Of a DNA stretch of 64,000 nucleotides, positions 1-63,794 are shown in pieces; position 1 is the first letter of the stretch, and each line of letters starts with the position of its first letter. The DNA comes from Bugula neritina. Taxonomy: Eukaryota; Animalia; Bryozoa. The stretch lies in assembly GCA_964035545.1 (NCBI GenBank), contig OZ037767.1:6774707-6838706 (forward strand). Reading direction: 5' to 3'. The translations under genes were made by a program, and so were the position numbers. The notes under the pieces were generated by a model that did no database searches, was not told the DNA's origin, and worked only from the letters and a program-made list of their open reading frames with translations.

Positions 1-48
1 CAAACAGGAGGAGACAAATGCATTATTATGCTACGTAATCCCATTACA
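1..48 (-). repeat. Partial 3' LTR of element 1
   Basis: Exact match to 3890-3937; begins TGTAATGG on the minus strand directly after a purine-rich tract. Confidence 0.9.
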
Positions 49-68
49 CCGCCCCCTCCAGCAGAAAG
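49..68 (-). other. Polypurine tract of element 1
   Basis: Minus strand CTTTCTGCTGGAGGGGGCGG abuts the LTR; nearly identical to 54891-54910 in element 2. Confidence 0.75.
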
Positions 69-325
69 CCATACTTTCTGATAAAAACAGAAATAGTATA
101 ATAATGCAAAAATAAAATAAGTAAAGAAAACTCACAAAGAGAAAGAAGAGAAATACCAAATGTATGACATATATAAACATATAAGTAAGATACGGATAGC
201 CAGCGTACAACTGGCCAGCTATGAAGAGAGAGTCCTGGATCGTAGGTCATTAGCAGTCAAGCATTTACACGATCACAACGTAGTATCCCGGGAACATGCG
301 GGATGGAATTGCCAACTGTCAGCTC

Positions 326-1354: not shown

Positions 1355-1383
1355 TGTGAATGAGAGTGGTATGTTTATGAATT

Positions 1384-3468: not shown

Positions 3469-3574
3469 ATCCCAACTTGGCGGGGTCTACAGGTGTAACA
3501 ATGTCATCTTCCTCCTCTTCACTTAGTGGCATGAGTAGTTCCGTAGCTCTTTCTTTCATCTTGAAATACGCGAA

Positions 3575-3592
3575 ATCCCACTGCTGCCACCA
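3575..3592 (-). promoter_or_regulatory. Primer binding site, tRNA-Leu type
   Basis: Minus strand TGGTGGCAGCAGTGGGAT, 1 nt from the LTR; one mismatch to the element 2 PBS; complementary to the ...AUCCCACCGCUGCCACCA 3' end of metazoan tRNA-Leu(AAG). Confidence 0.85.
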
Positions 3593-3593
3593 C

Positions 3594-3937
3594 TGTTGTG
3601 AGTTTTAGCACAATTATCAAGCGTGGATTGCCTGCGTATTTAGTTTCAATTTAACTAGCAACTACTAACAGAGCTTGCGTACGATAACCTTTATTTAATT
3701 CGATAAACATAATTATAACAGTATGTCAAAACCACAATACATCAATCAATTATAAACACGTCTAGCTACTACGAGCCCCTGCTCTCAACACACATGGTTT
3801 CTGCTAGCTAACCCGCGAACAGTCACTTGACCGGAACCTTGTCTTCCGGTCCTTCTGATTGGATAGTAAAACATAGTTATAAGTATTCCCAAACAGGAGG
3901 AGACAAATGCATTATTATGCTACGTAATCCCATTACA
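3594..3937 (-). repeat. 5' LTR of element 1 (344 bp)
   Basis: TG...CA termini, adjacent PBS, minus-strand AATAAA near 3690; its last 48 bp equal bases 1-48. Confidence 0.88.
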
Positions 3938-4612
3938 CCGGTCATGATTATGATAAATTTATTACATTTACTGTCTGAATTTTTATAGGGTAAATATTAA
4001 ATTTTGTTTATGATGATATAAGAGATTAAATAATTATAATGATACTGCTAGTAATAATAACAATCTGAGTGGTTCAATATGAATAATATTTTAGTACTAT
4101 TAATTATCATAAAATTAAACTATCATAATAATGATTATCCTTAATGTTAACATTTGGATGATCTTATTTAAATTATATAGATTTGTTATTACTATTAGTA
4201 TTTGTCATTAAATAAGTCGTGTGGCCTATTTTAGGTATAATTTCTGCTTAATGCCTAGTTAAGTCATAAACGCACTTGTTTTTTGTGACTAAACTAAAAA
4301 TTAAGAGTTAAGGGAAATTGTTTCGACTCACTCTGAATTTGTACACATCATGATCATCAATATTAGTATAACAGTAACTGTAGTCATTGCAGCTGTAATA
4401 CAACATTTTAGTGTTAAATTTCATAGCCATTATCATGTTTATATTGATTTTCATCTCTCTGCAATTGATATGTCTATTTTAGGGGAAAATGCTAATCACC
4501 TAATACATGAAAATGAAAGAGAAACTTGTTCCATTTCAGCAGCAGAATTATTTTTAGAAACAGAATAAGTGAAGTTTTCTTTTTGGTGACTACAGACAAA
4601 CATCGCTCAAAC

Positions 4613-16600: not shown

Positions 16601-18521
16601 CCTTGCTATGACGACAAAGGGTGGGGGTATAATGACACCACTAATTAATTAATAAGGATTGTTATTAGTTGTTTGGTGGACAGTAACACATGTATCTCTG
16701 TACATTTGTAATGTGTGCCCTGACAAACCCTAATAATTCTATTCCACATTTCGCAGGATTAGTTGCATAGTTGATATATTCCATCTAATATATTACATCT
16801 AATGTATTGCATCTAATTTATTACATCTAATGTATTACATCTAATGTATTACATCTAATGTATTACATCTGATTTATTACACTGAAATAGTGTGTGTATA
16901 AACTATCATTGTTATATTTCATGTTCCCCAATCCCTTACCATTTATACTTGGTCTACTAGTAATCCACATACCACAATCACACTGTTCAGTGCTCTGGTG
17001 TATTTCTGAGACAACCGGTGAAGATGCTGTCACATGGGGAGACAAATTTGCACAAGTCAAAAAATGGGCTCTTTTTATTCTAATTAATTTCACGTGATTG
17101 AGAATAGCACTGATATTTAAAAATAAAATGATAAAATGGCCGCTTTAGTTCCAATCTCACCGATACACATATTGTGTGTGGCAAGTAGCTCTTACAGCAT
17201 ACATGAAGTTCAGCTCTATGTGGCAGCACCATAAAGTCTGAAGTGTAGTCCAACCGGGCCTTTTTATCATGATACATATTTTAGATACTGAAGTATGTGC
17301 AGCAGAACCTCTACGTATCTTCAACACCGCTTCTACGTTCTGTCATTCAGTTAGCTATCAGTAACGTACATGACTGTACCACGTTCTTACAAGAGTACAT
17401 GGCGATGGAACAGAGGAACTATGCTGTCAGTAGAACCAGGCAGTTCTTCACCTCGTACTTAGCCTCTAGTTCCTCATCTCATAGTTCTAGGGCTAGGGAA
17501 AAGGTTGCTATTTACAGTGTGCTCTTTGAGTTACAACAGCTGCAGGCGTTGTCAAGTGATGGTTAGTAAACGTTTTATTGTGTTTGATCCAAGTTCTTTT
17601 AGCTTTCCAAACCCCAAACAGATATAATATGAAGTCGATGAAGCTCTATGGTTTTTACTACTGGTTTGCTGTTTTTTCGTGTGAATGATTTTTATGTTTG
17701 TTAAATGGTCACACATTGCAACGCTTTTGTTTTTACGATACAGCTAAGTATTCACAGTGTATTTTCTTCAGATTATTCCTCCAAGAGTGTTACCCACAGA
17801 ATAAGGTCGGTTTGTGAGAAGTGTCTCAACACATTCTGCTCAACATCAGTGTTACTATGGAGACTATACATGTCACATGAGGTGAGGAAGGTGCATTTTT
17901 GCAAATGACGAACTACAGATTTTCTTGGGCTAAACTTTGATGTTGGTTTATTTTTGTCCGTCAATCTATTGGTGATGTAATGATATCTTTTTGAGGCTAT
18001 AGCTTATTTTGGCAGCAGTATCGCAGATATTTTACAGATAGCAACAGCCGAGTGATTTAGTAGAAAATTCTGCTATCGTAATGTAATATTATGTAATCTA
18101 TACAGTTCCTATTTGGTGACTTAGAGGGATAATGCGTAAGTATTAGAGTTTTTGCCATTTTATACAGTATGCAACTTCTTGCACTGTCTGTCACTGGAAG
18201 AAGGTACTTACCCAAGCCACAGGCTCTCTCTGATAATTACGGAGTATTTATCTGGTTTTAATTGCTCTAAATCCTCATCCCATAATCATTTTGGTATTAT
18301 TATACCAATTTATTTTCCAGGCTAAACATGGTGACCTAAAGAAAGTGGAGTCTATATTCTATTCCTCAGTGCAGGCCTGTCCATACGCCAAGTATCTCTA
18401 CACTGATGCTGTCACATACTTGCCTCATAAGATTGAAGAGATCCTTGGTATTGCAGAAGAGAAGGATGTACGAGTTCACACGCCACTTGATGAGCTAGAT
18501 ATTTTACTTCACCAAGAATGA
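4613..18521 (+). CDS. NRDE2: NRDE2 (nuclear exosome regulator / nuclear RNAi factor), about 20 exons
   Basis: GT-AG exons encode MSLFP (start), NWLQVSSF, VDNRPDKDNYSFGSL...ISKY, NPLGILDSST, LREDSGNTELWLRLISAQD, EKAVAIVQSMIEFN, FYDSGVPRFGEPGSKGW, HWLPWKP...DCEDPHRLV and the C-terminal ACPYAKYLY...EKDVRVHTPLDELDILL, all typical NRDE2 motifs. Internal exon edges are approximate. Confidence 0.92.
8572..8875. repeat. Intronic minisatellite, ~17-bp unit CATATACACTTACTATA
   Basis: Visible degenerate tandem array. Confidence 0.85.
14812..15459. repeat. (TAGTG)n pentanucleotide microsatellite, ~650 bp, in an NRDE2 intron
   Basis: Long tandem array with TAGTA/TAATA variants; accounts for the HYTTL-repeat ORFs. 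Confidence 0.97.
16783..16870. repeat. 14-bp tandem repeat TATTACATCTAATG
   Basis: About six visible copies. Confidence 0.8.
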
Positions 18522-24213: not shown

Positions 24214-27200
24214 ATGAAGGAAGAAGCTGCTGGCCAATCAGAAGGCTCGGCAGCAACCAGGCTGTCAGCTGAGGCTGCAGAGTTTGTTCCTAGTCATGAC
24301 TGTAATAGTCTTCCAAAGTATATGTTCAACTGTTACCCATTTGTAACAGAGTCGGTGGGGCAACAGAGCAAGAGTAATGGAGGCACACCTAGTCACCATC
24401 AACAGTGAGGATTTATTAGATGATAATTAGTATTCTTTGCGCCATCGCTAGTCATCTGTTCGAGCTTATTGGCTGCCAACGCCCATCAATGAACTCATTT
24501 ATACCTTCTCTTTTTTGCGATTGGCCAGTTTTGGTGGCTTGGATGATGCATATTTATGGATTCTAAGATAATAGTTGTAGAATGGTAGTAATTTTATGCA
24601 TATTTTTTAACCATGTAATATGGGCTAAGTTTCCTTCGAAAGGACCAGTTAAATTCCTTCAACTGCTTAGTGCATATTTTCCTATTTGTCTAATTACTAT
24701 TTCTCTTCTCCTTTCCATCAGAGCGTGTTACTAGCATTTACAATACTGAAGGGGAAAATTCGAACCTTTAATCCATGCGTTAATCCAGATAAATCCTCGT
24801 TTAAAGTATCAAATGTTTCCATGGTTACTAGTACGTTGTGATTTGTTGCCAACTTGAGCAGGTAGTACATTAAGTGGTCCCATTCAGTGCTGGCACTAAA
24901 TCCTTATCCAGGAATACTTGCAATAGTTACAGAACTAATGCTATGTTATGTTACAGTTGGTTGGCACAGGAACTGCCCCTTCTTTCAAGAAAAAGATATG
25001 CATTGCCTTACTCGTAAAGTACATCTTCTGTTTCAGACACTCCAGCGAGGGGCTCCCCCATAAGTCGCTGCCACCTAACCACCATCATTGCTCTTCTGGC
25101 AGCAAACATCATGGCCACCAGCCAATTTTCCAAGCACCCCCTCCAAACTTTTACCCGTCACACTCTGCTACTCCAGGTAAGCCCTTAGCAGCTTCCTCGG
25201 CCTCCTTCTGGCCCTTCCCTGTGGCCAGTGCACTGTGTGGCATCTCTTTATTAGGTTTCACAAGTAACTCTGAGCCTGCTAAGTATTTCAGTGATTCCAA
25301 GTCCTCGTCTGCTAGCTGGTGACATTTATACACTGCTATGCCGAGCCCCTGTCTTGTATTACCATGTTAAATTATATGCCATGTTATTTGTTATAATAGG
25401 TATATGCCATGCTGTATGTTATATCACATGCTGTGCTGTATGTTGTAATATATGTCATGCTGTATGTTGTAATATATATCCTGCTATATGTTATATCACA
25501 TGCTGTGCTGTGTGTTGTAATATATGCTGTGCTGTATGTTGTAATATATGCCATGCTTCGTGTAATATTTTGTATCTATAGATTGGTACAATTGTCTTGC
25601 TATATTTATTGTCCTTAGACTGAGATAGTCTACAAATATCTGCTACTTATGAGCCGATAGTGTTGAGGTTTCACTGCTCCAATACATTATATATTTACTG
25701 TGTATTAGTAGTGTATACTACTATACAACTGCTGCATTACCTTAAGAGTACTTGTGCACATGTGCTACTAGCTCCTACACTAGCAACTGTCTAACTACTC
25801 AGTGTACACTGCTCCAGCACTTTTTAGCAGGGTAGCCTATGTACACACAAGTACAGCTATCCGTAATATAGCTTCATAGATAATCTGGTTACTAGGTATC
25901 TGGTTGTATAATGCAAACAGTCTTTATTCCAATAACTATTCAGTCCAATAACTATTCAGTTACTGAGCTGAATTGGGCATTAAATACTAAATGATTTATA
26001 ACAGGCAGTTTAAAGATAGTAACTTTTTCATCTCTAATAATCATTTTAAAATATGGTGCTTCTTTATCTCCAGCTAATGTATCTAACTCCCAGACAAGGT
26101 GTTTCCGTAATTTCTGCACTTTTAAATTTTAAATTATGGCCTTTCACTCTTTGAGACTGAAATATGTGTGTTTCCAAAGTGCAGTGTGCCTATATGTATG
26201 GTGCCAACAGTTGTGTATTTCTGAAAGCTGTGAAACTATTAATTTGCATCTCAGGTGCAACCATTTACTTTCTTGTATCAAAACAAGAAATCTTCACCTG
26301 GTTTCATCCTACCAGCTCTTTGTAATAATTAGTAGCTACTTTCAACTCTGTTGAAATATTGTCACTGTAATTTATTTTTAATTGCTATGAGGGTATAATT
26401 ACTGTGTTTATTATGTTAAGATGTGCCTGCATATACTTGCACTACGTACATGCAGGCTGTATGCAGCACAGGTGGTTTCCATCTCCTACTGTATACCTGG
26501 GTGTTGTCAGCTTGAAAATAGTTCAATTAGTGCCAATCCTCGCTGCCTTATATCTCCGCAAAGTTTTCGTTTTCTATATAGTATATACACCCTGCTTTAA
26601 AGTTTAAATGTTGACATCTAGTGTATGTGGTTATGTAGTATTCTAGTTAATGCACCTTTGTAATATATCATTTCATGACATGAAACTGGAAATACCTTTG
26701 GTAGAGTTGGCATATTTAAGAGGCTAAAATTAGTGACTGTTTTAGCATTTTGGTATTTTCTGTAGTTTATGTTTCAGTAAAGCAAACTAGAATAAATTAG
26801 TACATATAAGCATTCAGGATCAACTAAAGTTATCTCCCCTGGTTTAGTCCTATATCTTACTCAGAGTAGTCTGGCAAATCATAATAATAAAATGTTTTAA
26901 TAGAAATTAGAGTCATTTTGATATAGTTGGAGATATTCAGTGTTGATTGAAATTCCACCATTCTACCAATTAGAAATTCTTGTAGTGGTATGCAATATTT
27001 TTAATGAGAATTAAATATATTCATAGTGATGTGATCAACTCAACTCTGTTCCAGTCATGACTTTACTGAGACCTGATTGAAAGGTTTTGTGTTAGCTTGA
27101 CTTAACCTGATTAGCCCTTGCCCTTGAATTGCTGTGAATTTTATTTTCGGTTACACTTTGCCATGCTATTGTCTAAATTTATTTCCAAATTACTAAACTA

Positions 27201-33200: not shown

Positions 33201-36200
33201 TAGTCCCAAGGTAAGTCTTTACACCTGAAGTTGTCCCCTCACTACAATACGAAACCACTTTATCCAGTAAATATGTAACTGTGAATGTATTCTTCAGTTA
33301 GAAATGGAAGGAATCTGCCAGCCTTTTTAAACCTAGCAAAAGTGGTGCAGAGAAAGTCCTTTTGTTTCTAGTATCTAGTGTTGAAGTAAACTTTATAAGT
33401 GTTTTTGATTGTTGGTAGTCAAGAGAGATTTTGTAAAAAGTGAATGCCTTGCTTTCCTGCTCTTCCTGTAATGCTATAACTTATTCCACGTTATTAGTAT
33501 ATTCTGTACTGTAACTAGAATCCATGCTGTAAAATGTAGGAAACATTCACCAGTGTTTACATGTGTTGTGATTGGTAGCTAGTGTAGCCTTTGTGCTCTG
33601 GTTATTGATTGTTTCAGTGTAGGTCAGTCGCATTCTCTATATACTTGTACATGAACTGCCACACTGTATTATATCGCTGACAGGCAGTTTTATATTACTC
33701 ATACAATATTTATACTATTAATATAACTGTAGTTTTATATTACAGCTTATAGTGTGTGTACTTTATATGGCATACACTCATTGTAGTTTAGTTATTTATT
33801 ACTACTCTGAACAAAATGGCTGTATATTATACGAGATGGTTCTCTTACCTATTAAGTATGGCATCTATCAACACTTGCAATGTTACATTCATACAAGGTT
33901 CCATTAAAGGAAGGCTTGTCATGTTTCCTGCCCTTTAGGACAGGCATTTCTATATACTTTTAACCAGTGATTTCTGAGGGCCTGCAGCCAGTCTAATCAA
34001 ATTTAGACTGAGATCCTAGAGTAGTTATATTACTCTAAAGGGTCCCGACATAGCTGAGTCTGTAGGCCGCAGACACTCAATTTCAACTTGTATTCAGTAA
34101 AAAAATATTGTTCTGTTTGTATTTTATAGCATAATGGAAGCAATGTTATAATATGCAGCCAATATGAGAAGACAACTCCTGTAGATAGAAATACTCATGG
34201 AATGTATTCATTTGTAGCCTCTGCAGTCGGATACTGAAACGCCCACGCCGGTGCAGAAAAAGAATAGCTTTAGTCCCAAGAGTACTGCAGCTCTCAATCC
34301 ACTGGACTCCTCCGCACCCAACCAAAAGCGGGGCAAGGAAAGGGAGACCCCTAAGGCTAAGAAACCCAGTGCCCTCAAGAAAGTCATTCTCAAAGAGAGA
34401 GAAGAGCGGAAACGGATGAGGTAGACGTTTTTGAAACTGTAACTTTATAAAGTAACATAGAGATGTGTTTATAGAGCAAAATTCTGCATGTAATTTTAGT
34501 CAATAAAGTTGCTTTGTTAAAAAGAGCTGGTGATATCCTAGCAACCATTAGCTCTGAACTCAAAGGATCCGCCATCAGTGTAATACTAAAGTGTCTTGCT
34601 TGCTGCCGCTTGTTTGCTGACTTAGTGTGTGTCTTAGTAATTCCTCTGGCCAATTAGATGTTGGGTTTGTGTTCAGGTACATTGGAGACGGGCCAGTTGA
34701 TCTGATCTCTACACCTGACTCCAGTCTCCACTTCACTTCTGAACCGGAAGAGAACGACGAAGATGATGTAATCAGTGACATAGAAGAAGCCAATTTGCTA
34801 GGCAATAGCTCTATAGGTTGGTAAAACTAGCACCTCGTTTCCATTTCTTGGAATGGATCAGTTTTGATGCATTTGTGGTTTCGGTTCCCATTAACTTATG
34901 GTTACGGTTTCACTCATTCAACTGTTCCCAAACATCAAATGAAAAATCCATGCAAGCAATGGAAACACAGTGATGGTATATAAACTTTCTGTTGGTATTG
35001 TTGTCTCTGTATTTATACTGTTTCAAACTGATGAACTGGTATGACATATTGAAAGCCTGGTGGAATTTTAGCTCAATATTTTTATAGTACAAGACATAAA
35101 AAGTTAAGCATTGCTAGACATCAGTTAGGTTCACGGTGCCAGGTCAAGTGAGAGTAAGTGATTGCAGCAGATGTGTGAATGTGATGGCATATTGTGTGGA
35201 GTGTCGGTTACAAATCTGCAGCTTCTGTTACATTGTGTCAAAGGTTCTTAGAAATAATTAGTCTACAGTGACGTATTCAGCACTATATAGTAATTATATA
35301 TAACACCATGTTGCTCTGCTTACCTGTAGTACACTCTGCCATATGTATTTTCATCATATCAAAGTAGTGTTGAAGTGATTGGAGACTTGCAGGTTTTAAA
35401 AATCCCCAAAAAATGACAAATATGGTTTTATGTTTGAATGTTTATTGTGGTTGTTGATAGATAACGTGTCTTCGTATTACAGGAGATGACTCAGGAACAC
35501 CCCATAGTCAAGATTTATCCCCTGTTAGTCAAAACTCTCCGATAAGTGTCGGATTGTTGTCTCCCCCGACCAGCCTGAGTAATCCAGCCAGTGGTATCGG
35601 CAGCCCTACTGTTGTCAGCGACATCATACAGAAGATCCATTCCCGTAGATTTAGAGAGTAGGTGTTGGGCACGCTCTATAGATAATGTATAAACCTTCCC
35701 ATTCTATTTGTAGATAAGGTATAAGTTTTTCCATTCTATTTGTAGATAATGTATAAACCTTCCCATTCTATTTTTGATAATGTATAGACCTTCCCATTCT
35801 ATTTTTAGATAATGTATAAACCTTCCCATTCTATTTATAGACAATGTATAGACCTTCCCATTCTATTTATAGATATTGTAAGCAAGTCCTGGACAAGGAG
35901 ATTGATGCCAACTGTACCAACCTTCTGCAAACTCTCGTCAAGTTCCAAGACCGGCTCTACCACAAGGACCCTATAAAAGCAAAGACAAAAAGAAGGCTTG
36001 TACTGGGTTTAAGGGAGGTCACCAAACACCTCAAACTTAGAAGGGTTAAACTGGTCATTATATCTCCTAATCTCGAGAAAATACAGTCTAAAGGTAAGAA
36101 ACTTTATCTTTCTAAATTAATTTTGCCCTGTGAACAGTCGATGAGTTATATTATATGTTTCATGAGATATGGAAGGGTACATAGATCCTTCTGCTGTATT

Positions 36201-49599: not shown

Positions 49600-52299
49600 C
49601 TAACGGCCCTGAGATTTATATATTTTCATTATGTGGGCAGTCTCTGATAGAGCCATATTAATGCACATAGAATTGTTCAAGCCAAAATCAGTTAGTAGAT
49701 AACCTTGCGAGTTACCATATGGACGGAATCGAAAATCTTTTATTTTATAAGCAGGTAAAGACTCTTTAATGCATAATTTTTCCCAAGAAGTTCGTAGCTT
49801 CTTTAATCTTAAGACCTCACCAGCAAGGTAATCTTTTTTCCTAGCAATAATGGCTTCCAGTTTATTTTTGAAGTAACAATATAATGAAACGTCAGCGCTT
49901 AGAAACTTGTAGACAGTAGCTCTATTTTTTTCGTTGTCTTCAGGTAAAAGAGTTTCATTTTTCGTAGAAGATGTCATGTCGCGTTGACGATTTGACTGAA
50001 AGTAAAGAATATCTAAATCTTTCCACCCTAACATATCTCTTAGCAATATCAGGCATTCATCAAAATATTCAACAATAATTACGAAATGGAATTGTTTTTC
50101 AAGGCTATTAATTAGCTCCTCTATGACTTCGTGATTATTGCTGTTTGCTAAGCTAAGACCTAAATCATATGCTTGAGGATTTTTAAAAATAGTATTGCAA
50201 ATACGATGTCCAGCATTGATCAATTCTAAGAGAGAATGATTCCGATTATCTTGGCTATGCTTGCAGTTTTGCAGATGATAATATCGATACACTGAAGCAA
50301 GCTGTTTAAATGGATCCCTTAGAGAAGTCAGGTAAAAGCTGTCTGCCGGCATAGTCTTTACCAGATCATCAGAAAAAACAGTATGCAAACAAAACACATC
50401 TGGGACTTTTTTGCCTAAATGAGGATACAAATTTTGCCGGAATTTGTTGGGCCAACCAAAATTGACCAAATTCTTTCCAGGAGGAAAAGCAAATGACAAG
50501 TTTCTCTTAACTCCTGCTCTCATAATGATGTTCTGTATAGTGCAACTAGCAGTCTTATGCACTTTTAGATAGACGATGTGGTTACTATTGAAAGCTCTAT
50601 GATTGAAATACGTTGAGGCTTTATGTTTTATGAATTCCCCATCTGCTATTTGTGATAATGCTTTAAGGTGACATTTTTCCTCTACATTAAAATAGTGAAG
50701 TTTTAAATCTGCTGCAGAGTTATAACCTAAAAGTATAAAAAATATTTCTACCTACTTTTATTATAATAGGACTAGGACTACCATTGTAACTGTCATGAGC
50801 AAGGCAAACATACAATAAAAACTAAAGCTTAGGATTTGGTGTCGAATTAATAAAATGTATTATCCAGCTTGCAAAAAAGATGAAAAGGTTTCTGGAAATT
50901 GGTAATTTGCACTAAAAATATTTGGCTGCAAGTGGTATTTTCAAAGTAAAATTACTTGGTGTTAGACAATTTTAGTTTTATTTTAATGAACCAGAATCAT
51001 AATTTATTATTGAAACAATGATTAGACAAAAATATAAGCTCCTTACCAACAAACAAGTAGACAAGAACTGAACTCAGAGCCAAAATCAGCAATGCTAGAA
51101 CTTTTGCTTGTTGTCTGCTCAGAATGTTTAATCTGAAAAAAAATTATGGCAACAGAAGTGGTTAAAACTCAAGCAAGTTGAACGCTGAAATCTCTAACTG
51201 TTTTAAACTATATAAGTTCAGCCAACATCTGCAATAATTTATAGCTAAAGGTGTCAACAAGCTAAGATTTCAAAAACGTCTATCTTTTTTTAATTTCAAT
51301 ACAGCTCTCAACTACAAGCTAATGAATCTTACTATGAAACACAACTTTATATATTAATGGCAGAGCTTTTCGAATTAAAATTTCTTAAAACAATATGTTA
51401 TTATAGGCTATATAAATTAATTTGACCAAGACTAAGGTGGCAGTGGTAGAACTGGAGTATTTATAGAACTGCTGATAAGCTGGAAGACAAGAAAACTTAT
51501 GAGTTATGACAAAATTATATTCTGCACTACACCCAATAGCAAAAGCAGAAAGGCTGGCTGCATGTATGTTAGAAGGAAAGAAGACAGCAGAGGAAAGATT
51601 TCAATTGAAAAATGTGAATAATTAAACTTGTCAGATAACATCAAGAAAAGACCGTAGAAGAGAACACAACATTCAAAAGATTTCTTGAAGGCAAAACCAC
51701 GTAGCAGTTAGCAGTAAACATTGATAAAGTAATTGAAAAAACTAATGAAGGAAAAGAAAAGGCTCTACATGATCAGTACACCAGGAGCTAGTATGAATGG
51801 TTGAAAAGGCAAACAGAAATACTGTTGTTGGCTGCTTAAGATTAGGCACTTCCTACTAGGAATAAACAAGGCAGAAAGAAGTGTTGGACATGAAATGAAA
51901 GGCATGAAACTGTGATGCATAGCCTACACCCAGTAAATGTGAGAAGCAAACACCGAGCAAATTTTAGTAGAGAAATGAATATTTGGCTTTTTTAATTCAC
52001 TGAGAAGTGTCTGAAATCCATAGATTTCAGAAGAGCACGAATTGGTTCAACCACAGAGTAGAATTAGTAACCGAGAATGAAAACATAATTTTTTGGTTAT
52101 TTCAAAATGTACACTAACAGAGTCATCAAAGCTAGAAGAAAGGCCTAATATCATTGTAATTGACAAGCACACTGCAAAAAATAATGATCAATAATATAGC
52201 GGTCTTTGGCGAAAATAATAGAGTCAGAGAAGATAGGAAAATACCAAAAGATGACATTACAACTCACCCATCTTTGGGGAAATTCTTAGTAATCTCCAT
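49600..52299 (-). CDS. GAL3ST: Galactose-3-O-sulfotransferase family protein; exons 52299-52268, 51132-51047, 50726-49600; 414 aa
   Basis: Type II transmembrane anchor VLALLILALSSVLVYLFV; 5'-PSB motif IVYLKVHKTASCTIQNI; 3'-PB motif LTSLRDP...SVYRYY; NPQAYDLG; FVIIVEYFDECLILL. Exon phases are compatible. Confidence 0.9.
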
Positions 52300-54581: not shown

Positions 54582-54890
54582 TGTTATGATTTTCAGAATT
54601 AGGGTTGATATGCAATCCAGAGAGTCTAATTACTTGCTATAGAACTGCACCAGGATAAGTCGAGTGAACGAGTATATATTTTAAACACACAGATACATTA
54701 CAAAAACGATACAAACACATTTGACAATTCACACATCTAGACTATTCAACACTCTAACTTCGACTGACTGACAGCGGGAAAACTATGATTGCTGCTAACT
54801 AACTCGAAGCCGCTAATTGGCTATCAATTGTTCCGGGTCAATTACGCGACCCTATATACTGTGCTGCTGGTAGCTCCACGAGCCACCACA
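54582..54890 (-). repeat. 3' LTR of element 2
   Basis: TG...CA termini; matches 61786-62094. Confidence 0.96.
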
Positions 54891-54910
54891 CCGCCCCCAC
54901 CAGCAGAAAG
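54891..54910 (-). other. Polypurine tract of element 2
   Basis: Minus strand CTTTCTGCTGGTGGGGGCGG abuts the 3' LTR. Confidence 0.75.
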
Positions 54911-55182
54911 CCCTCTTTCTGATATAAAAAAAAACATTCGTCATTAACCACATACATCAATAGACCAAAAGATAATACATAACACATATAAAGATATCTA
55001 ATAACAGACAGAGTCATTATAACAGCAAGTAACATACAATTGGCCAGCTATAGAGGAGGAATACCGGCTAGCTGTGGTATTGGACAAGGAGTCGACCTGT
55101 CGAGCAGTCAAGCATTTACATGATAGTCTTGGGTCTCCCAAGAGGACGAAGTTGTGGATTATTCCGGGTAGCAGAACCAGAG

Positions 55183-56255
55183 TCAATGTTGGGCACGCCG
55201 ATGTTTGGCTTGGCATGTACGTAGCTTCCGCTTAATCCGGCCCACTGATCCTTTCAGTTGGAAGAGCCCCGTCGTGGTATTGAGCAGGTCGGGTGCTAAC
55301 TGGGTAAATTCCTCCTGCAGTCGGAGGAGACGCTCCTCTACTGTGGCTAGGCGAGCAGGGTCTGGGGACGGTGTCCGTCTGCGGCGCAGAGGGGGACTGG
55401 GAGACCTGGTTCGTCTCTTCATCGGGGTAGGGGAGACCTCTCCTTCTTCGGGATAGGAAAACTCTTCGGGGGTGTACGCAATCTGAGGGCGGTCAGATAC
55501 CAATGGAGATTGTTGCCTGGCATTGTCTAGTACACGCTGGAAACCTGAGGTCAGGACGGCTAACAACATCGCCTTCTTTACTAGGGGTCGTATCAGAGTG
55601 AGGAATTCTGGATAGAGCTTGGCATCTACCACGTAATTCTCTCCGGAGAAACAGCCTGTTGCTCGATGTCTGGTGACAGGGTAGGGGTAGACATCATTGT
55701 ATCCGCAGGGGCAGAATGTGAGTAAGAGATGGGCGTTGACGTGTAGCTTCAAGGAGCGGTGAGAGGCACATTCTTCGCCACAAATCTGGCACCGCGTCCG
55801 TCCTCTGGACCCCCAGGCCGTTTCTATCTGCTCCTCTGTTTCTGGAGACACCCACCGCCAACGGCGGCGCAGTGGCTCGGGCCGGTCACCATTGGCATAC
55901 TCCTCAGGATGCGGAGCGGGAAGTGCTCTATCCCGTACCCTGGTTGTAGCGGGTCGAGTGTAATCTGAAAAAGTTTCAACAGTGTTAGTACAGTACACTG
56001 CCGTGTTGTCGGCTTGAATAGCCTGGCAACTCCTCATTCAGTTACCTCGTAGAGATCTATGGTAGTGAATAGTCAGATAGAACACGTATTGCAATGAGAT
56101 TATAAAAATCTCTAAGTCAAACTGAGTTCTTACTACGGTATTTCACTAACCTATCTCCAGCTCAATTGACTCGGTGAGTCGGAGCTGAGCGATGCAATCT
56201 AGTTTCCATATTAAGATATAGTTAACTCACCCCACGATCTGTTGTCGTACGACAT
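55183..56255 (-). CDS. Retrotransposon accessory ORF3: zinc-finger/Arg-rich/coiled-coil protein; predicted exons 56255-56231 and 55964-55183, 268 aa
   Basis: CQIC-x12-HVNAH finger, CPC...H...C cluster, RRTRSPSPPLRRRRTPSP and heptad C-terminus. Micro-exon MSYDNRSW, G|GTGAGT donor, TACTAAC branch point (55990-55984) and TTTTTCAG|AT acceptor join in frame. Confidence 0.78.
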
Positions 56256-56279
56256 ACTGAATTTGTGAAATGGTTTGAA

Positions 56280-56528
56280 CTACTGCTTAGAAACACGTCT
56301 ACTCCTGACTGCATCAGCGTATGAAAAGATCGAGCAACGTGGTTGGGGTGCGTGATTAAGACTTTGTGCACCCGGCGGATGAATTTTGTTTCTATTTCCG
56401 CCGATACAAAAGTTGATATTTCCGTGGTGTTGACAACTCCCACATTTGCTCGATACTTTTCTCGTACGGTTTTCCCCTAGACTTTCATATGCGCCACTTT
56501 TAACGCAGTCGCATACGAAGTCCTTCAA
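56280..56528 (-). other. Out-of-frame C-terminal tail of Pol
   Basis: Homologous to the in-frame tail of the element 1 ORF; rejoined to Pol by removing one base from the G7 run at 56535-56541. Confidence 0.7.
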
Positions 56529-59500
56529 ATATGCGGGGGGGTTGCCTCGTACGTTGTCCCCTTTCTAGGGGGGGTGACACGCTCGCCGGTTTATTAGCAG
56601 GGGCCTCTAATGGCGTCTCTACTTCACCGTTGGCGGTCACTTCTTCTTGTTCTCCGGATGGAGCCCCTCCCTCCGTGGGGGTTTGCACTTCCGGAACCGG
56701 CCCGGTTTCTGGAAGTGATGGAGTTAGACTTGGTGGCGGCGGACACGCTTCTGTTGGCAAAAGCTGTCGCTCTTCTCTCACCAAGTTTTCCTCCCGCGGT
56801 ATGACCACTTCATATTCAGGTCCATGCCGCCGTCGCCCGCGCGTTGTTGTCTGCCTCCTGGGCTCCAACAACGGGGGGGCTTCTCCCACTGCGTCGGGGC
56901 TAGCCCAATACGGCTTCAAGCGAGACTCATTCTGGATAGACACCTGTCCTGAGCGCTCAATCTTGTACGTATGGTTGGGCATAGCCTCGACGATCACGTA
57001 GGGTCCCACGAACTTAGGCTTTAATTTGTCAGCCTGCCCGTGACGCCTACGGTAATTGACCATCCACACCTTATCTCCCGTTTGGTAGAGAGGTGGTTCC
57101 TCGGAATCTTCGTGCCGCACCTTCCACTGCTGTTCGCGCAGTATATCGTGTGCGGCCTTCATCCGTTCCACTAGTTCACTGGCATACTCGTGAATCGAGT
57201 TGTCTAGCTCTGGAACGTGGTAGGTGAGATGGTCAGGTACCCGGGTTTCTCTCCCGAGCATCAAGAGGTTTGGGGTCTCACCAGTACTGGTGTGTGGGGT
57301 GCTACGGTATGCGCGCATGACCTGCGGCAATACCGTGTCCCATTCCTCTTGACTGCGTCCAAGGAGGAGACTCCGGAGCGCATCACCTAGCATCCGGTTG
57401 TTGCGCTCCACCACCCCATTACCTTGTGGGTGATAGGGGGTGGTCCTGCTCTGATTTACTCCCCAGAGGCGACAAAGGTCGCTCATCAGTTGAGACTGGA
57501 ATTGAGCGCCTTGATCAGAGTGTATCTGCTCGGGGAGACCGAAATAACAGAATACATGTTGGTCTAGTACCCTGGCCACTGTCGGGGCTGACGCATCTGG
57601 GATAGCCAGAGCATCCGCCCACCTAGTAAAGTGGTCGGTTAATACTAATATCCAACTATTGCCTCTGGGGGTCAGGGGCATGGGTCCGACCAGGTCTACA
57701 GCGACTACTTGCCAGGGCCTTCCAGCATATAGCCTCCGCCGTCCCGCTTCACCAGGGAGACGGCTATGCTTACTGGCCTGGCAGATCTCACACTGTTTGA
57801 CTCTGAGTCGGACGTCACGCTCCATGCGTGGCCAATACCACCGGAGTCGTAATTTGGACATCACTCTCTTGACCCCTGCGTGGGCCTGTTTGTGAGTATC
57901 CCAAATCAACTCACGGCGGATGGCAGTGGGGCAGACTACCCTCTTCCTCTCCGGATGTCTGCCGCTGGCGGCTAGAGAGATGGTTAGTAAACCATCCTGC
58001 CCGATCCGCAGCGAGTCCCAACGCTGACAGTATAGCCGGAACTCGGCGCATCCCTGTCGTATGCGTTCCTCGCTGGGTCGTCGCCCTTCCCTCTTGGCCC
58101 GATATATGTCTGCCACGACTCCAGGCAGCTCTTCTTGGAGCTTCTTCAGCTCTCGGACATTATCGGCCAGTACAGGGTTGGCGCGGAGGTTTTGTACAAC
58201 CTCCGGGGACTCGTCAACCTCCTGTCCGAGTTGACCCTGGTCCCAGTCAAACGGTGCTCCGTGGTGAGCCAGCGTCTCCAACTCACATCGCGGGGGACCT
58301 CCATCCCTCCTCTCGATGTGGAGACACTGTTTGCAACCTCCATCAGGTCGGCGACTCAAACCATCCGCATTGCTGTGTCTCTTGCCCGGTCGATGTTCGA
58401 TCCGGTATGAGAATTCAGCTAGGATTTCGAGCCACCGGGCGACCTGACTAGAGGGCTCTGCTCTCTTGCACAACCAGATCAGCGAGGCATGATCCGTACG
58501 CAGCCGGAACTTCCTGCCATATAGGTATGGTCTGAAGTGCTTCACTGACTTGATTACTGCCAGCAGCTCCTTGCGGGTAGTGCAGTAATTTCGTTCAGTG
58601 GGTGAGAGAGACTTGCTGTAGTAGGCTACTACTACTTCTCGGCCTTCCTGCACTTGAGACAGCACAGCGCCAACATTTTGGTCACTGGCGTCAGTGTCGA
58701 GGATGTACTCCAGAGTGGAGTCTGGGTAGGCCAAGATGGGCGCCGTTAGTAGGCAGCCCTTGAGGCGGTCGAACGCTCCTTGTTCGACTGGGGTCCACTG
58801 CCACGTCACTCCCTTTGCGGTGAGCCGGTTTAACGGCTGTGCTATGCCCGCAAAGTCTGGTATGTATTGTCTGTAATACCCTACCAGCCCCAAGAAAGCC
58901 CGGAGTCCGGTCAAGTCTTGGGGGGTGACCCAGTCTTCTATTGCCCGTACCTTCTCGGGATCCGTTGCCACGCCGTTTCGACCGACAACGTGCCTCAGGT
59001 ACTTAACCTCTGGCTGCAATAGAGCGCACTTGGAAGGTTTGAGCTTAAGACCGGCACCTTGGAGTCTCTCAAAGACCTCCTGCAGACGACTGACATGCGT
59101 CTCGAAGTCTGGGGAGATCACGATGACATCATCGAGGTAGATCAGCAGTGTCTTCCAATGGAGCCCGCTGAGGACTTGCTCCATCAACCTCTGGAAGGTG
59201 GCTGGGGCGGAGGTTAACCCGAACGGCAACACCTTCCACTTCCACAAACCGTCCCGTGTGATAAACGCCGCTTTCTCCTGGGCGTCGGGACTCAGAGGAA
59301 CTTGCCAATAGCCACTCAGCAAGTCTAACGTACTGAAGTACTTGCTGCCGGCTAGGTCGTCCAATGACTCGTCAATACGAGGTAGAGGGTAGGCGTCCTG
59401 TATGGTTACGCTATTGAGTTTGCGGTAATCCACACAGAACCGCCAACTGCCGTCTTTCTTCCGGACCAGTACGACCGGCGAGCTCCACGCACTATGGGCG

Positions 59501-60852
59501 GGCTCTATCAGTCCCCGGTCCAGAAGATCCCGTACTTGTCGGCTAACCTCCTTCTCTTTCTCCGGCCCCAGCCTACGTGTGGGTTGCCGGACAGGGACTG
59601 TCCCTGCAGTCAGCGGTATTTCGTGTCTGACAACTCCAGTCAGCCCCACGTCATGATCTCCGCTGCTGAACACATCACCGTAGTCGCGTAGTAACTTCGC
59701 CATAGCTTGGCGTTCTTTGTTACTCGCGCAGCCGCCACAGGCTGTGTCATACAACTCCCGGAGATGTGCTGGGACTGTCCCTCGCCCTTGAGTAGGGCAC
59801 CGAGGGAATGCCTCCGTCGCATCACCCAGCGACGGGCCTACGTCCTCCTCCTGAACAGAGTGAAAACGGCCCAGCATAGACCCAGCCGGAAGCTTGACAG
59901 ACTCGGTAAAGGGGTTGACGCACTGCACTAAGATCTCCCCTTGCTCAGTCAGCTGATTCAGACTGCTGGCAAGTTGGATCTTTTCGTGCGCGCCTTCAAC
60001 TACCCCGAGTCCAGAGATCCGGCTATTGTTCACCCTGCAGTGAATGGTAGCCCGGGAGCGGCCTGGTATGGTACGGTTGCGTACCACCTGCACACCTCCC
60101 ACTAAAGGGCGGCCGAACTTGTCGACGCAGGCGAGTTCTCGCCCGGACATCATCATCGCAGATTTACTAAAATCGATGTGACATCCGTGCCGTTTTAGGA
60201 ATGGCATCCCGAGGATGGCGTCCTCCTTGAGCTGACTGACGATGAACGTCTCTTGGATCGTTTGATCACGGACTCGTCCCGTCAGCTCAATTATACCATA
60301 GAAGGGAAGGCACGACCCGTCAGCTAGGGTGCCATACTCCCCCTCGTATGATTCCATCTCGCCCCTGACCCTAGCACTGAGGGTGTCGAAGAGTTGGCGG
60401 CTTAAGAGGTTTGTGGTACAGCCCGAATCAATGAGGAAAGTAACAGCTTTGCCTTCCAGTTTACCGGGCAAGAAATAGCTGTTCCCATGGGGCTGCACCT
60501 GAACTCTCTCTTCAGGCCTTACTCTCGCAGGGAGTACCTCCCTCGCTTTGGGTCGCGAAGGAGGTCTCTTGGGATGGTGGTAAGTAGGCCTCGGAGGTGC
60601 CGAGGCTAGATTTCCGGCTACCTTTGTTGGCTCCCATCCAGATTCTTGGGCTGGTAGCCCTTCGAATCGATTGTGGAGGGGCATGGAAAAGGTAGCGGCG
60701 GGGCGGAGCCCCTTGCTGGTCCGTCGTGGCTGTTGCCACTGTCGGTTGCCAGTACGCGGTGCCCGTCTGGGTGACCTGCGTTTCTTCTTCCCTGGAGGTT
60801 TCATCGTCGGCCCGCAGGAGGTGGGAACATCTGCGGGCCGCGGTAGTTTAAC
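56500..60852 (-). CDS. pol: Pol polyprotein (protease, RT, RNase H, integrase), expressed by -1 frameshift from gag
   Basis: LIDSG; WRFCVDYRKLN; LPFGL; YLDD; LDTDAS...TDH...ADGLSR; HHCC; DLVGP...HSDQG...GVVER; GPY motif. Confidence 0.96.
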   Translation of the reverse strand, partial: VKLPRPADVPTSCGPTMKPPGKKKRRSPRRAPRTGNRQWQQPRRTSKGLRPAATFSMPLHNRFEGLPAQESGWEPTKVAGNLASAPPRPTYHHPKRPPSRPKAREVLPARVRPEERVQVQPHGNSYFLPGKLEGKAVTFLIDSGCTTNLLSRQLFDTLSARVRGEMESYEGEYGTLADGSCLPFYGIIELTGRVRDQTIQETFIVSQLKEDAILGMPFLKRHGCHIDFSKSAMMMSGRELACVDKFGRPLVGGVQVVRNRTIPGRSRATIHCRVNNSRISGLGVVEGAHEKIQLASSLNQLTEQGEILVQCVNPFTESVKLPAGSMLGRFHSVQEEDVGPSLGDATEAFPRCPTQGRGTVPAHLRELYDTACGGCASNKERQAMAKLLRDYGDVFSSGDHDVGLTGVVRHEIPLTAGTVPVRQPTRRLGPEKEKEVSRQVRDLLDRGLIEPAHSAWSSPVVLVRKKDGSWRFCVDYRKLNSVTIQDAYPLPRIDESLDDLAGSKYFSTLDLLSGYWQVPLSPDAQEKAAFITRDGLWKWKVLPFGLTSAPATFQRLMEQVLSGLHWKTLLIYLDDVIVISPDFETHVSRLQEVFERLQGAGLKLKPSKCALLQPEVKYLRHVVGRNGVATDPEKVRAIEDWVTPQDLTGLRAFLGLVGYYRQYIPDFAGIAQPLNRLTAKGVTWQWTPVEQGAFDRLKGCLLTAPILAYPDSTLEYILDTDASDQNVGAVLSQVQEGREVVVAYYSKSLSPTERNYCTTRKELLAVIKSVKHFRPYLYGRKFRLRTDHASLIWLCKRAEPSSQVARWLEILAEFSYRIEHRPGKRHSNADGLSRRPDGGCKQCLHIERRDGGPPRCELETLAHHGAPFDWDQGQLGQEVDESPEVVQNLRANPVLADNVRELKKLQEELPGVVADIYRAKREGRRPSEERIRQGCAEFRLYCQRWDSLRIGQDGLLTISLAASGRHPERKRVVCPTAIRRELIWDTHKQAHAGVKRVMSKLRLRWYWPRMERDVRLRVKQCEICQASKHSRLPGEAGRRRLYAGRPWQVVAVDLVGPMPLTPRGNSWILVLTDHFTRWADALAIPDASAPTVARVLDQHVFCYFGLPEQIHSDQGAQFQSQLMSDLCRLWGVNQSRTTPYHPQGNGVVERNNRMLGDALRSLLLGRSQEEWDTVLPQVMRAYRSTPHTSTGETPNLLMLGRETRVPDHLTYHVPELDNSIHEYASELVERMKAAHDILREQQWKVRHEDSEEPPLYQTGDKVWMVNYRRRHGQADKLKPKFVGPYVIVEAMPNHTYKIERSGQVSIQNESRLKPYWASPDAVGEAPPLLEPRRQTTTRGRRRHGPEYEVVIPREENLVREERQLLPTEACPPPPSLTPSLPETGPVPEVQTPTEGGAPSGEQEEVTANGEVETPLEAPANKPASVSPPLERGQRTRQPPRIFEGLRMRLR

Positions 60853-61754
60853 CCCGGAGTTAGGAAGGGACAGTACCTGCGGAAATGTCCTTGATTTCCG
60901 CATTCCCAGCAAAAACTGACCGTTTCCCCCTGTGGCGGCGCCGGTGGCCGTACGGGCTCAGCGGCGGTACCTACTGGGGTTTGGGGTGTCAGTGTTGCTA
61001 TCAGTTTGGCCAGCATGTCTGTCAGTTGAGTGACTTTTGATGCTGTCGCTAACTGAGCCACGGCAGCCGTGGCGGAGGTTTCCTCCTCTCGTCCTGCTGC
61101 CGTGTCCGTGCGGTCTACCTCCACTTGACGGGAGCTCCCGCGACTTTTATGCATTTGACTTGCTAGGAGGTAAGCTTCCCCCTCAGTCAGAGCATTTTCA
61201 ACGGTGGTGACTCCCCTAGCTAGAAACTGGTGGTGGAGACCCAAATCGTCGACAGATGCTATGAAAGCGTCGAGGGTATACCTCTCGCGGTTGACTGGGG
61301 GCAAGTCGCTGTATGCGATCTGTGCCAGCTTCATGACCGCGGCGGCATGCTCTCGCAGCGGGGTGCGGGGATCACGCCGCAACCTCTGCAATCGGGCCCT
61401 GGCATCTGTAGCAGAGAGGCCGAAGCGGGCCCGCAGAGAAGCAAAGATATTATCGATGTCTACGCCCAGCCCATAAGGCTTGGCTTTGTCCATCAATGCC
61501 ATTCTAAGCTTTAGCAGGGCCACCCTAGGGGGCCACTGGGCGACGTCCATTACGTCGCTAAACTCTTGGATGAATTGTTCCACCTCCTCTTCGCCCGTGA
61601 AGGTGGGCGCCTTTAACCGGTAGCGGTCTTCAGTTAGTTCTCGCGGAACCCTTCGCTCTTCTACTACATGGTTAATAGGCATTGTCTCTACAGCATTGTC
61701 TCTACGCTCACCTTCTACTGCCGGTGGTTGCGTTCCAGCATTTTCAGTCTCCAT
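60801..61754 (-). CDS. gag: Gag (317 aa) with CCHC zinc knuckle
   Basis: ATG just after the PBS; KAPTFTG...FIQEF capsid-like region; CWECGNQGHFRRYC. Confidence 0.93.
   Translation of the reverse strand: METENAGTQPPAVEGERRDNAVETMPINHVVEERRVPRELTEDRYRLKAPTFTGEEEVEQFIQEFSDVMDVAQWPPRVALLKLRMALMDKAKPYGLGVDIDNIFASLRARFGLSATDARARLQRLRRDPRTPLREHAAAVMKLAQIAYSDLPPVNRERYTLDAFIASVDDLGLHHQFLARGVTTVENALTEGEAYLLASQMHKSRGSSRQVEVDRTDTAAGREEETSATAAVAQLATASKVTQLTDMLAKLIATLTPQTPVGTAAEPVRPPAPPQGETVSFCWECGNQGHFRRYCPFLTPGLNYRGPQMFPPPAGRR
60808..60852 (-). promoter_or_regulatory. -1 programmed ribosomal frameshift signal
   Basis: G_UUA_AAC in the gag frame (60852-60846), a 5-nt spacer and a perfect 10-bp GC stem CGGCCCGCAG/CUGCGGGCCG, all inside the gag/pol overlap. 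Confidence 0.8.
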
Positions 61755-61766
61755 CTTGGATGCACT

Positions 61767-61784
61767 ATCCCACCGCTGCCACCA
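61767..61784 (-). promoter_or_regulatory. Primer binding site, tRNA-Leu type
   Basis: TGGTGGCAGCGGTGGGAT (18 nt), 1 nt from the LTR. Confidence 0.9.
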
Positions 61785-61785
61785 C

Positions 61786-62094
61786 TGTTATGATTTTCAG
61801 AATTAGGGTTGATATGCAATCCAGAGAGTCTAATTACTTGCTATAGAACTGCACCAGGATAAGTCGAGTGAACGAGTATATATTTTAAACACACAGATAC
61901 ATTACAAAAACGATACAAACACATTTGACAATTCACACATCTAGACTATTCAACACTCTAACTTCGACTGACTGACAGCGGGAAAACTATGATTGCTGCT
62001 AACTAACTCGAAGCCGCTAATTGGCTATCAATTGTTCCGGGTCAATTACGCGACCCTATATACTGTGCTGCTGGTAGCTCCACGAGCCACCACA
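61786..62094 (-). repeat. 5' LTR of element 2
   Basis: Matches 54582-54890. Confidence 0.96.
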
Positions 62095-63794
62095 ATATGA
62101 GATTTTCGACATGCTTATTCCATTTTAAATCTGCTGATAGCAATATTCCAAGGTATTTTACAACTCCAACTCTATTCAGGGGATCTTCTCCTAATTTATA
62201 AGTGAAGACATTTTCCATATTTTCTGTTTTCTTACCAAAGGTGATCACATTACTTTAATTCTTTGAGTTAAACTTCATATTGTTTTCTTTTGCCCACCTA
62301 TAAAGTCTAGAAAGATCTTCCTGTAGTTTATGATGATCATTTGGATCAGTAATGGGCAGATAAACAAGAGTGTCATCAGCAAAAAGCCTGACTGTACTAT
62401 GTGTAACGCAGTTTACAATGCCATCAATAAACAAAACGAATAATGTTAGACCCAGCACACTTCCTTGTGGAACCCCGGAAGTCACTGGTGCTAAGTCCGA
62501 AGATACCCGTCAATGACCACTCGTTGTGAGCGTCCAGTTAAGAATGATGAAACCCATCGGATAATACAGGGATTTATTTTTAACAATATCAATTTATTTA
62601 CAAGAATATGATGGTCAATTACATCAAAGGCTTTAGAAAAATCCAGCACAACTGCTTCTACAAAATGTTCTTTATCTATATGCCTTAATATATCGTGGGT
62701 GACAGTAGCGAGCTAAGTAACACATGAAAAGTTGCGGCGAAAACCATGTTGGTTTTCATGTATCAAATTTTCCAATTGTGTGTTTAAATGATGCAGAACC
62801 ACATGTTCAAGAATTTTACAACAAATGCACGTTAGTGATACTGGACGATAGTTGGAAGCTAGAGTGCGGTTACCCTGTTTAAACACAGGTGTTACATTTG
62901 CAGTCTTCCAGTCATCCAGCACTATTCCTGTATTGAGTGAATGATTGAAAATACACACCAGTATTTCTGCTGTTCGATCTAAGTCCACTGTGAGATAGTT
63001 CTTTGTGAATCCATCTACTCCAAGAGCTTTACCTTGTACAAGTTGTCTCAGCAGGTTCACAACTCTTTCTTTAGTTACCACTATATTATCTTTCTCAGTG
63101 ACTGATGGTAATTCTGGTAGAGGTGATGGAGTGGTAAATACACTGTAGAAGAAACCATTAAGAGTGTTAGATATCTTAGTTTTATCATACGTCAAGATAC
63201 CATCGTTGTTTTCTATGGAAGTAATCTCATTATAATTCCTTTTTAGTTCTTTAAAATATTTGTAAAACGGTTTTGTGTAGCCACTGGAAAGAGGTTGGTA
63301 TAGACGATTCACCAGAAAAGATGCTTTTTGTTTTCTAAATAATTTTTTTTATTACGGCGACGTAATTCTTTATATTTAGCCAAGTGATCAGCATTACCAG
63401 ACTTTTGAAAGCGGTTGTAAAACTTTCGCTGTTTCTTACATGCCCGTCTGGCTTCATCATTAAACCAGAGAGGCTCATGTAGATTTCTAGGCTTACTTTG
63501 TTTAGTTGGGACATATGAATCAACAAGTCTATGTAATTCAGTCTTAAATGTATTCCATATAACATTAATATCATATTTCAACATTACTTTGTTTTTAATA
63601 GTATAAAGCAACTCATCTAGACCAGTTGTAAACCCGCCGAGTTCGATTTTGTGGAATAGCTTGATGGGGGGGGGGGGGGATAGATGGTTTCTTCTTCTGT
63701 TCAACTTTACCAGTCAAGACTGTTTCTATCATGAAATGGTCGCTAATACCCGGTGTTATTACGTTTGTGCTTTGAACTTTATATGACAAGTCAG
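62095..63794 (-). mobile_element. Decayed APE-type non-LTR retrotransposon (LINE) ORF2, 5'-truncated
   Basis: PGISDH (end of endonuclease), NYRPVSLTCICCKILEH, QHGFR, LDFSKAFD, SGVPQGSVLG, LFADD, KYLGI; several stops and frameshifts. Clade not assigned. Confidence 0.92.

Follow-up and report, generated by a model that had tools for sequence, protein, structure and literature searches.

A zinc-finger ORF3 and a predicted intron-wide RNA fold in a Ty3/gypsy retrotransposon of Bugula neritina: a possible regulator and response-element pair

For few env-less LTR retrotransposons is it known how they export their unspliced RNA. In Cer1 of C. elegans the export of unspliced RNA requires CERV, a protein made from spliced RNA and having its N-terminus in common with Gag, which comprises 517 aa encoded in 5 exons and includes, besides its H, M and G domains, possibly a C4 finger (PMC10309623). 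The Cer1 protein is known, but the sections of PMC10309623 consulted do not name an RNA target for it. ORF3s of LTR retrotransposons are typically expressed from spliced messages (PMC5408684), and on the RNA side the structure of the MLV PTE has been described as overlapping pol over ~1,400 nt (PMC4588558). Here we describe a bryozoan retrotransposon for which the following are established: the element itself, a hairpin in its intron, a predicted fold shared with a second element, a spliced relative, excess folding across the intron and the finger anatomy of the ORF3 protein.

The window, by which we mean the whole stretch of 64,000 nt that was analysed (Bugula neritina, contig OZ037767.1, positions 6,774,707 to 6,838,706), is AT-rich eukaryotic DNA with spliced genes. 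On the minus strand, at 54582-62094, it contains element 2, a full-length LTR retrotransposon of Ty3/gypsy type, which can be assigned to this type by its identical LTRs of 309 nt each (61786-62094 and 54582-54890), a 4-nt target duplication (ATAT), a primer-binding site directly after the 5' LTR (61767-61784, minus strand; the same motif occurs in the distant relative L001) and the pol domain order PR-RT-RH-IN, to which gag and a third open reading frame (ORF3) are added. The primer-binding site is presumably of the tRNA-Leu type. The pol frame of element 2 ends with a stop at 56500 (interval 56280-56564), and the pol tail, which is in frame in element 1, lies in a different frame in element 2, representing either a break or recoding. 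In PMC8220671, as far as its accessible parts go, this ORF is not described, and the literature searched, which left most subscription journals and Repbase reports beyond reach, contained no description of the family, of its fold or of folding limited to the intron.

Element 1 (1-3940, minus strand) is an internally deleted relative, ~60% identical to element 2 where the two can be aligned. It retains part of gag, a folded stretch of pol, the entire spacer fold discussed below and an open ORF3 (326-1068). A 700-codon open fusion of gag, integrase finger and pol tail extends over 1384-3559; it is out of frame with the first ATG, whose own short frame holds an in-phase donor at 3465, and element 1 may be a non-autonomous element which still makes ORF3. 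Just upstream of the polypurine tract both elements have a small AGAAAG...CTTTCT hairpin (54892-54920 in element 2, 52-80 in element 1) that is also found in the distant L001 (1433-1461). Elsewhere in the window, an exon of an NRDE-2-like host gene adjoins element 1 (8137-8322, E 7e-8, below the Pfam cut-off), a decayed non-LTR retrotransposon RT fragment with a weak RVT_1 match flanks element 2 (62100-63704), a galactose-3-O-sulfotransferase ORF is located at 49600-50562, and tandem repeat arrays occupy 14672-15900, 8584-8863, 16760-16895, 25401-25568 and 35649-35900.

The main exon of ORF3 (55183-55964, minus strand) follows pol, and the protein, of ~270 aa, has a finger domain (modelled at pLDDT 95) made up of a C2H2 finger, a second finger of C2HC type and a helical subdomain, followed by a Pro/Arg-rich linker modelled at low confidence and a long basic C-terminal helix predicted to be a coiled coil. 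Residues C34, C37, H50, H54, C60, C62 and H75 are invariant or nearly so in 66 ORF3 sequences, and the C-x2-C-x12-H-x3-H spacing that defines C2H2 zinc-finger proteins is present; matches to C2H2 proteins extend down to E 7e-6, with zf-C2H2_4 found at E<0.01 in 7 of the 66 members. Fold searches returned no match at E<=0.001 (best Z 3.7) and nothing clear beyond zinc fingers, an Atlas search with ORF3 led to unnamed and C2H2 clusters, and the homodimer prediction score was 0.08. A transmembrane segment was sought and none was found, the highest 19-residue hydropathy values in the two elements (1.51 and 0.88) falling in an amphipathic helix; an Env identity was rejected for want of a membrane anchor and because the model is that of a soluble zinc-finger protein. 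Relatives comprise 74 close sequences and 121 matches at E<=0.001 among cluster representatives, an uncharacterised bryozoan protein being one of them, and no ORF3 loci were detected in the viral contigs (also searched by DNA pattern), metagenome contigs and prokaryote genomes that were scanned. In one annotated bryozoan protein (P0088/P0310) the ORF3 finger domain is present twice, together with a C-terminal helix, making host origin or domestication of this domain possible. ORF3 is supported as a protein of nucleic-acid-binding type encoded beside a conserved intron fold.

The most informative relative with respect to splicing is P0027, in which 13 of the 14 N-terminal residues are those of the Gag P0188 and the sequence continues exactly at the first ORF3 codon past the acceptor (TTTCAG, 55965, minus strand). 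The corresponding donor, D1, reads AAG|GTGAGC in element 2, with the intron beginning at 61711 in phase 1, and the Gly-Glu encoded across it (G|GTGAG) is found in 25 of the 29 Gags with a sufficiently long N-terminus among the 120 relatives listed. The junction in P0027 and the maintenance of the donor motif in Gag together indicate that the real intron is the 5,747-nt gag-pol intron (55965-61711, minus strand), of the env/CERV-like kind, preceded by a putative first coding exon of 43 nt (61712-61754, minus strand; Gag codons 1-14 plus one base, phase 1). An initial annotation of this DNA had instead drawn a 266-nt intron (56230-55965); this is not supported, since the sole spliced product found uses the gag donor and position 56230 is predicted to be base-paired in both elements. 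The same annotation proposed that an essential cis element explains why the intron survives retrotransposition, for which there is no need: its survival follows simply from the presence of gag and pol within it.

After two spurious pattern rows had been dropped, 22 relatives were found to span the acceptor, 21 of them unspliced, one spliced from gag and none from 56230. Element 1 has no GT at the D1 position but carries GTGAGA, in phase, at 3465 in its leader frame. P0027 sits on a 5,320-nt contig, which suggests, without proving it, that spliced RNA has been copied back at least once. Two further arrangements were considered and rejected: a middle exon read in the frame of Gag, as in each of the elements the nearest CAG that they share is followed by stops, and an IRES with its own AUG in element 2, as no ATG occurs from the acceptor to the zinc fingers.

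Folded in context, the two elements adopt the same predicted architecture over the ~500 nt preceding the acceptor (all coordinates on the minus strand). It begins with a branched domain overlapping the pol tail frame (D0, 56316-56468), followed by a rod (R1, 56191-56315; 1289-1413 in element 1), a hairpin (P2, 56158-56187; 1263-1288), a second rod abutting it (R2, 56050-56157; 1156-1262) and small terminal hairpins including P6 (55977-56003; 1083-1102). R1, P2 and R2 are joined with almost no linker, placing P2 between two long rods. P6 holds TACTAAC (55990-55984), which we take to be branch-point-like, in its loop and 3' strand, and R1 encloses the GTGAGT site discussed below as well as a predicted 3x3 purine internal loop (AGA/GAA, in element 1 AGA/AGA). 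D0 is the most conserved block, being 81% identical over 119 nt, and third positions of its pol tail frame differ in only 10 of 47 codons, compared with 148 of 250 in ORF3 and gag (p 2e-6).

The structural comparison rests on an alignment of two full DNA sequences, those of elements 1 and 2. Over 496 nt they independently form 56 identical pairs, 10 with one-sided and 7 with double-sided changes, against a permutation null of 2.1±2.9 shared pairs (maximum 11 in 40 permutations), whereas neither the ORF3 exon nor a 203-nt piece of gag yields a single shared pair; folding z values for the spacer region are -7.9 and -6.4. Under a stricter null, 104 pairs are kept against 91.8 expected in one direction (p 0.0004) and 106 against 96.9 in the other (p 0.015), with 16 double-sided changes against 9.0 (p 0.005) and, in reverse, 14 against 9.4 (p 0.06), and 41-58 pairs are broken between the elements. 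Additional evidence may be drawn from relatives whose gene calls read through the spacer as protein: sure changes affect 14 of 139 paired and 24 of 119 unpaired sites in P0024 (p 0.033), and 9 of 102 paired and 18 of 68 unpaired sites in P0026 (p 0.003). Among changed pairs, none of 8 is broken in P0026 (p 0.047); P0024, with 4 of 12 broken (p 0.68), and P0049, with 4 of 9, do no better than the null. A search for further read-through peptides gave one match, P0311, a near-duplicate of P0026. Variants at >=5% in run X1 are unpaired in 8 of 11 cases, keep a pair in two and break one in a single case when the hairpin register of the initial annotation is used (p 0.004-0.012), and a common variant at 56023 (94%) disrupts a pair of the small helix P5; run X1 may be the source of the window itself and is then not independent. 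An integrase scan for relatives gave 8 loci, all too distant to be aligned with the spacer, and in Rfam no gathering-threshold match was obtained in the window, the spacers of both elements giving only chance-level matches (E 0.33-3.2). These results support a conserved RNA structure in the intron upstream of the ORF3 acceptor, and, by prediction only, the type of several-hundred-nt multi-stem fold confined to unspliced RNA that is represented by RRE, MTE and PTE.

The spacer is not unique in this respect. The pol stretch retained in element 1 (57710-58216, minus strand; 2060-2566 in element 1), which had been chosen as a negative control, also has 56 shared pairs with 7 double-sided changes, thereby passing the tests of the spacer, and is a candidate second cis element by predicted fold. 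As a consequence of this positive control the whole element was scanned, and with 10-40 shuffles per window, z fell below -2 in 19 of 23 windows of 250 nt inside the gag-to-ORF3 intron and in 1 of 7 outside it (p 0.002). When shuffling was restricted to synonymous changes, 17 of 29 gag/pol windows showed excess folding compared with 0 of 6 in ORF3 (p 0.019); mean z values were -2.5 for gag and -2.2 for pol in element 2, -1.9 for the fused ORF of element 1, and +0.1 and +0.2 for ORF3, and no window of four other ORFs in the analysed DNA fell below -2 (one window being undefined). The antisense strand folds as well as the RNA-sense strand, and this measure therefore does not discriminate the RNA strand. 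No report of genome-scale ordered folding in an LTR retrotransposon was met with in the literature searched.

Such a distribution can be read in more than one way. The explanation we prefer, without going quite so far as to call it likely, is that the ~500-nt fold, which occupies the intron's 3' end, damps splicing to the ORF3 acceptor and marks unspliced RNA for export, with ORF3 as its probable partner. A broader form of this, which we regard as possible but rather speculative, is that a gypsy lineage of invertebrates has independently evolved a circuit like Rev/RRE in which the whole gag-pol intron, with its coding sequence, is selected to fold, up to its splice sites, and is read by a spliced, Gag-headed C2H2/coiled-coil protein that switches the RNA from regulator mRNA to genome export.

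The strongest competitor, which we consider unlikely while taking it seriously, treats P2 as one brick of a general genome-scale RNA fold that compacts or stabilises the RNA or shields it from host sensors and that has no specific ligand, ORF3 being a DNA-binding regulator of LTR transcription. It accommodates the extension of excess folding beyond the spacer into gag and pol, where one stretch is structurally as conserved as the spacer itself, and comparable structure has been described for RNA viruses (PMC9784701). The upper-ranked zinc-finger matches of ORF3, moreover, are DNA-binding C2H2 proteins. The distant relatives L001 and L003 have a zinc-finger ORF3 and an unfolded spacer (z +0.6 to -1.5), and pol of L001 is weakly folded (mean z -0.84), so that fold and ORF3 are not obligate partners and the trait is one of the subfamily. 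A fold of the genome as a whole should, however, not stop about at the two splice sites and spare the ORF3 exon and the LTRs, which are genomic too; it also leaves unexplained that the D0 block and the purine loop are conserved beyond the needs of pairing and that element 1, despite its deletion, retained the whole spacer. As a separate observation, the contig of L001 contains the post-pol region twice, with and without a 1.25-kb ORF3 segment (56-1307 and 7336-7390), the two copies being joined at a short microhomology, which may reflect a deletion variant or an effect of assembly.

A different role for the spacer would follow if the GTGAGT motif that the initial annotation regarded as the working donor (D2, 56225-56230, minus strand; at 1332 in element 1) were a true second donor, joining an 8-codon exon with its own ATG to the acceptor and so producing a second form of ORF3, with R1 as the switch. 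The motif is conserved between the elements and also as the start of P0024, its distance from the acceptor is steady (266, 264 and about 265 nt), and ahead of it an ATG at 56255 (1354 in element 1), 25 nt past the stop of the pol tail frame, aligns between the elements and agrees in phase with the acceptor across an intervening 3-nt indel, although phase agreement of this kind is expected by chance about 1 time in 9 by our estimate. Against this, the corresponding N-terminus occurs in 0 of the 22 relatives that reach across the acceptor, no joint skipping 56230-55965 is present among the 15 of 17 joints listed for run X1 (contigs being informative on presence only), and the site is buried in R1 with a predicted pairing of 88% and 79% in the two elements, the ATG itself doubling as a stem strand. 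The gag donor D1 is likewise predicted to be mostly paired. A second ORF3 isoform of this origin is left open by the sequence, but as an account of the region we find it improbable, and no evidence that D2 is used as a donor was found.

The hairpin P2, with which this analysis began, consists of a 6-bp outer stem, a small internal loop, an inner stem and a variable tip. Its sequence and coordinates had been given correctly, although on the plus strand, the element and its RNA being on the minus strand, and it does start 43 and 44 nt past GTGAGT (56230 and 1332), as had been stated. Its folding energy is -12.0 kcal/mol in element 2 (z -4.37, equalled by 0 of 200 shuffles) and -6.9 kcal/mol in element 1 (z -2.65, 1 of 200). 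The compensatory change claimed for the outer stem, C-G to U-A (56182-56163), is real and is one of the 7 double-sided changes among the 56 shared pairs; taken alone it is not significant, and permutation p values for the interval from GTGAGT to the acceptor alone range over 0.015-0.54 according to the measure and the direction used. The view that the two interiors are unrelated does not hold, for an inner ACU/AGU stem is retained in both hairpins, and the neighbouring blocks GAATAGT and GTCAA, correctly said to align between the elements, form strands of R2. A slipped register in element 2 is disfavoured because two common variants, at 56164 (73%) and 56190 (40%), break its pairs.

Could P2 itself be a packaging signal or the binding site of ORF3? 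It is the best-folding 30-mer of the 316-nt non-coding spacer, its outer stem is nearly invariant, and in run X1 all three frequent variants within it (58-98%) fall in the 8 unpaired of its 30 bases (p 0.014), two paired bases varying at just 1.2-1.5%. Judged by eye from codon-fixed bases, P0024 keeps the outer stem and swaps the inner closing pair from C-G to G-C; the automatic alignment of P0024 to element 1 places the gap elsewhere and scores one inner pair as broken. Absence from spliced RNA, as packaging requires, also speaks for such a signal. The tip and loop, on the other hand, vary in sequence and length (3 and 7 nt), unlike a recognition site, D0 is more conserved, the hairpin lies 5.5 kb from the leader, and the relative on the 5,320-nt contig is spliced and has no P2, all of which makes a signal residing in P2 itself quite doubtful, the packaging proposal being weakened by the position and by the spliced relative. 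A neutral origin of P2, from a palindromic AGCT and common descent, is very improbable. In its favour, 5 of the 6 outer pairs are simply inherited unchanged, at least equally good folding is seen in 56 of 2,493 sampled 30-mers of element 2, among which P2 does not stand out, and the interval-only p values are mostly non-significant; against it, shared pairs are far above the null and variants avoid the stems.

P2 should therefore not be viewed as the functional unit that it had been taken for, since it makes up a single arm of the ~500-nt fold and the intron as a whole has dozens of stems, and no special role is shown for it by itself. The proposed pairing of a response element with a regulator fares better and is the best-fitting model, provided that its unit is not the 30-nt hairpin. 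Under the preferred reading of a spacer fold that damps splicing and marks RNA for export, splicing would by default join gag codon 14 to ORF3. By concealing the decoy-like GTGAGT and, in part, the branch point, the rods would leave a fraction of the RNA unspliced, and ORF3 would then bind the folded intron RNA and license its export, by analogy with Rev and Cer1 CERV. D0 and the purine loop of R1, rather than P2, would be the best candidate sites for ORF3, and the part of P2 would be that of a structural spacer separating R1 and R2.

What makes the family interesting is its spliced candidate regulator together with the intron-wide fold, P2 alone being of little importance. One family supplies both halves of a possible export system, namely a candidate regulator that is small and well modelled and a conserved RNA fold that is bounded and has defined splice sites, and this makes the question testable with a minigene. 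Folding that is limited to the intron and runs through coding sequence would be a new signature with which other gypsy families could be screened.

With regard to described systems, the element resembles Cer1 in being an env-less LTR retrotransposon whose accessory protein comes from a spliced mRNA sharing the Gag N-terminus, on the evidence of one spliced relative (P0027) and the donor motif, and in combining a cysteine-rich metal finger with a helical segment; it differs from CERV, as far as that protein is described, in that ORF3 has ~270 aa, follows pol and carries C2H2/C2HC fingers and a long C-terminal helix. Among bdelloid LTR retrotransposons non-env ORF3s after pol are also found, but these are of esterase, exonuclease, coiled-coil or membrane types, and the word "zinc" does not appear in the main text of the description (PMC5408684). 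The excess folding of coding sequence relative to shuffles recalls the genome-scale ordered structure reported for RNA viruses in the parts of PMC9784701 consulted, except that in our element it does not extend beyond the intron, stopping close to the splice sites. Should GTGAGT in its conserved fold act as a decoy, or as a 5' splice site masked by structure, and so leave RNA partly unspliced, this would recall the accounts given of the RSV NRS and of 5' splice-site attenuation in MLV (PMC3082916, PMC2794156), from which our case departs in that the motif is located after pol, at 266 nt upstream of the acceptor. With HIV Rev/RRE, the MusD MTE and the MLV PTE, as these are presented in PMC4488727 and PMC4588558, the predicted fold has in common its several-hundred-nt multi-stem form in intron-containing RNA and its purine-rich internal loops, but the host element is a gypsy element and not a retrovirus, the fold seemingly spans the whole intron and has no Rfam match at gathering threshold, and ORF3 has zinc fingers in place of the arginine-rich helix used by Rev. 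Membership in the CERV, Rev/RRE, MTE, PTE or NRS classes is not shown; by analogy, the system, with an NRS-like decoy, would work most like CERV and like Rev/RRE, MTE and PTE.
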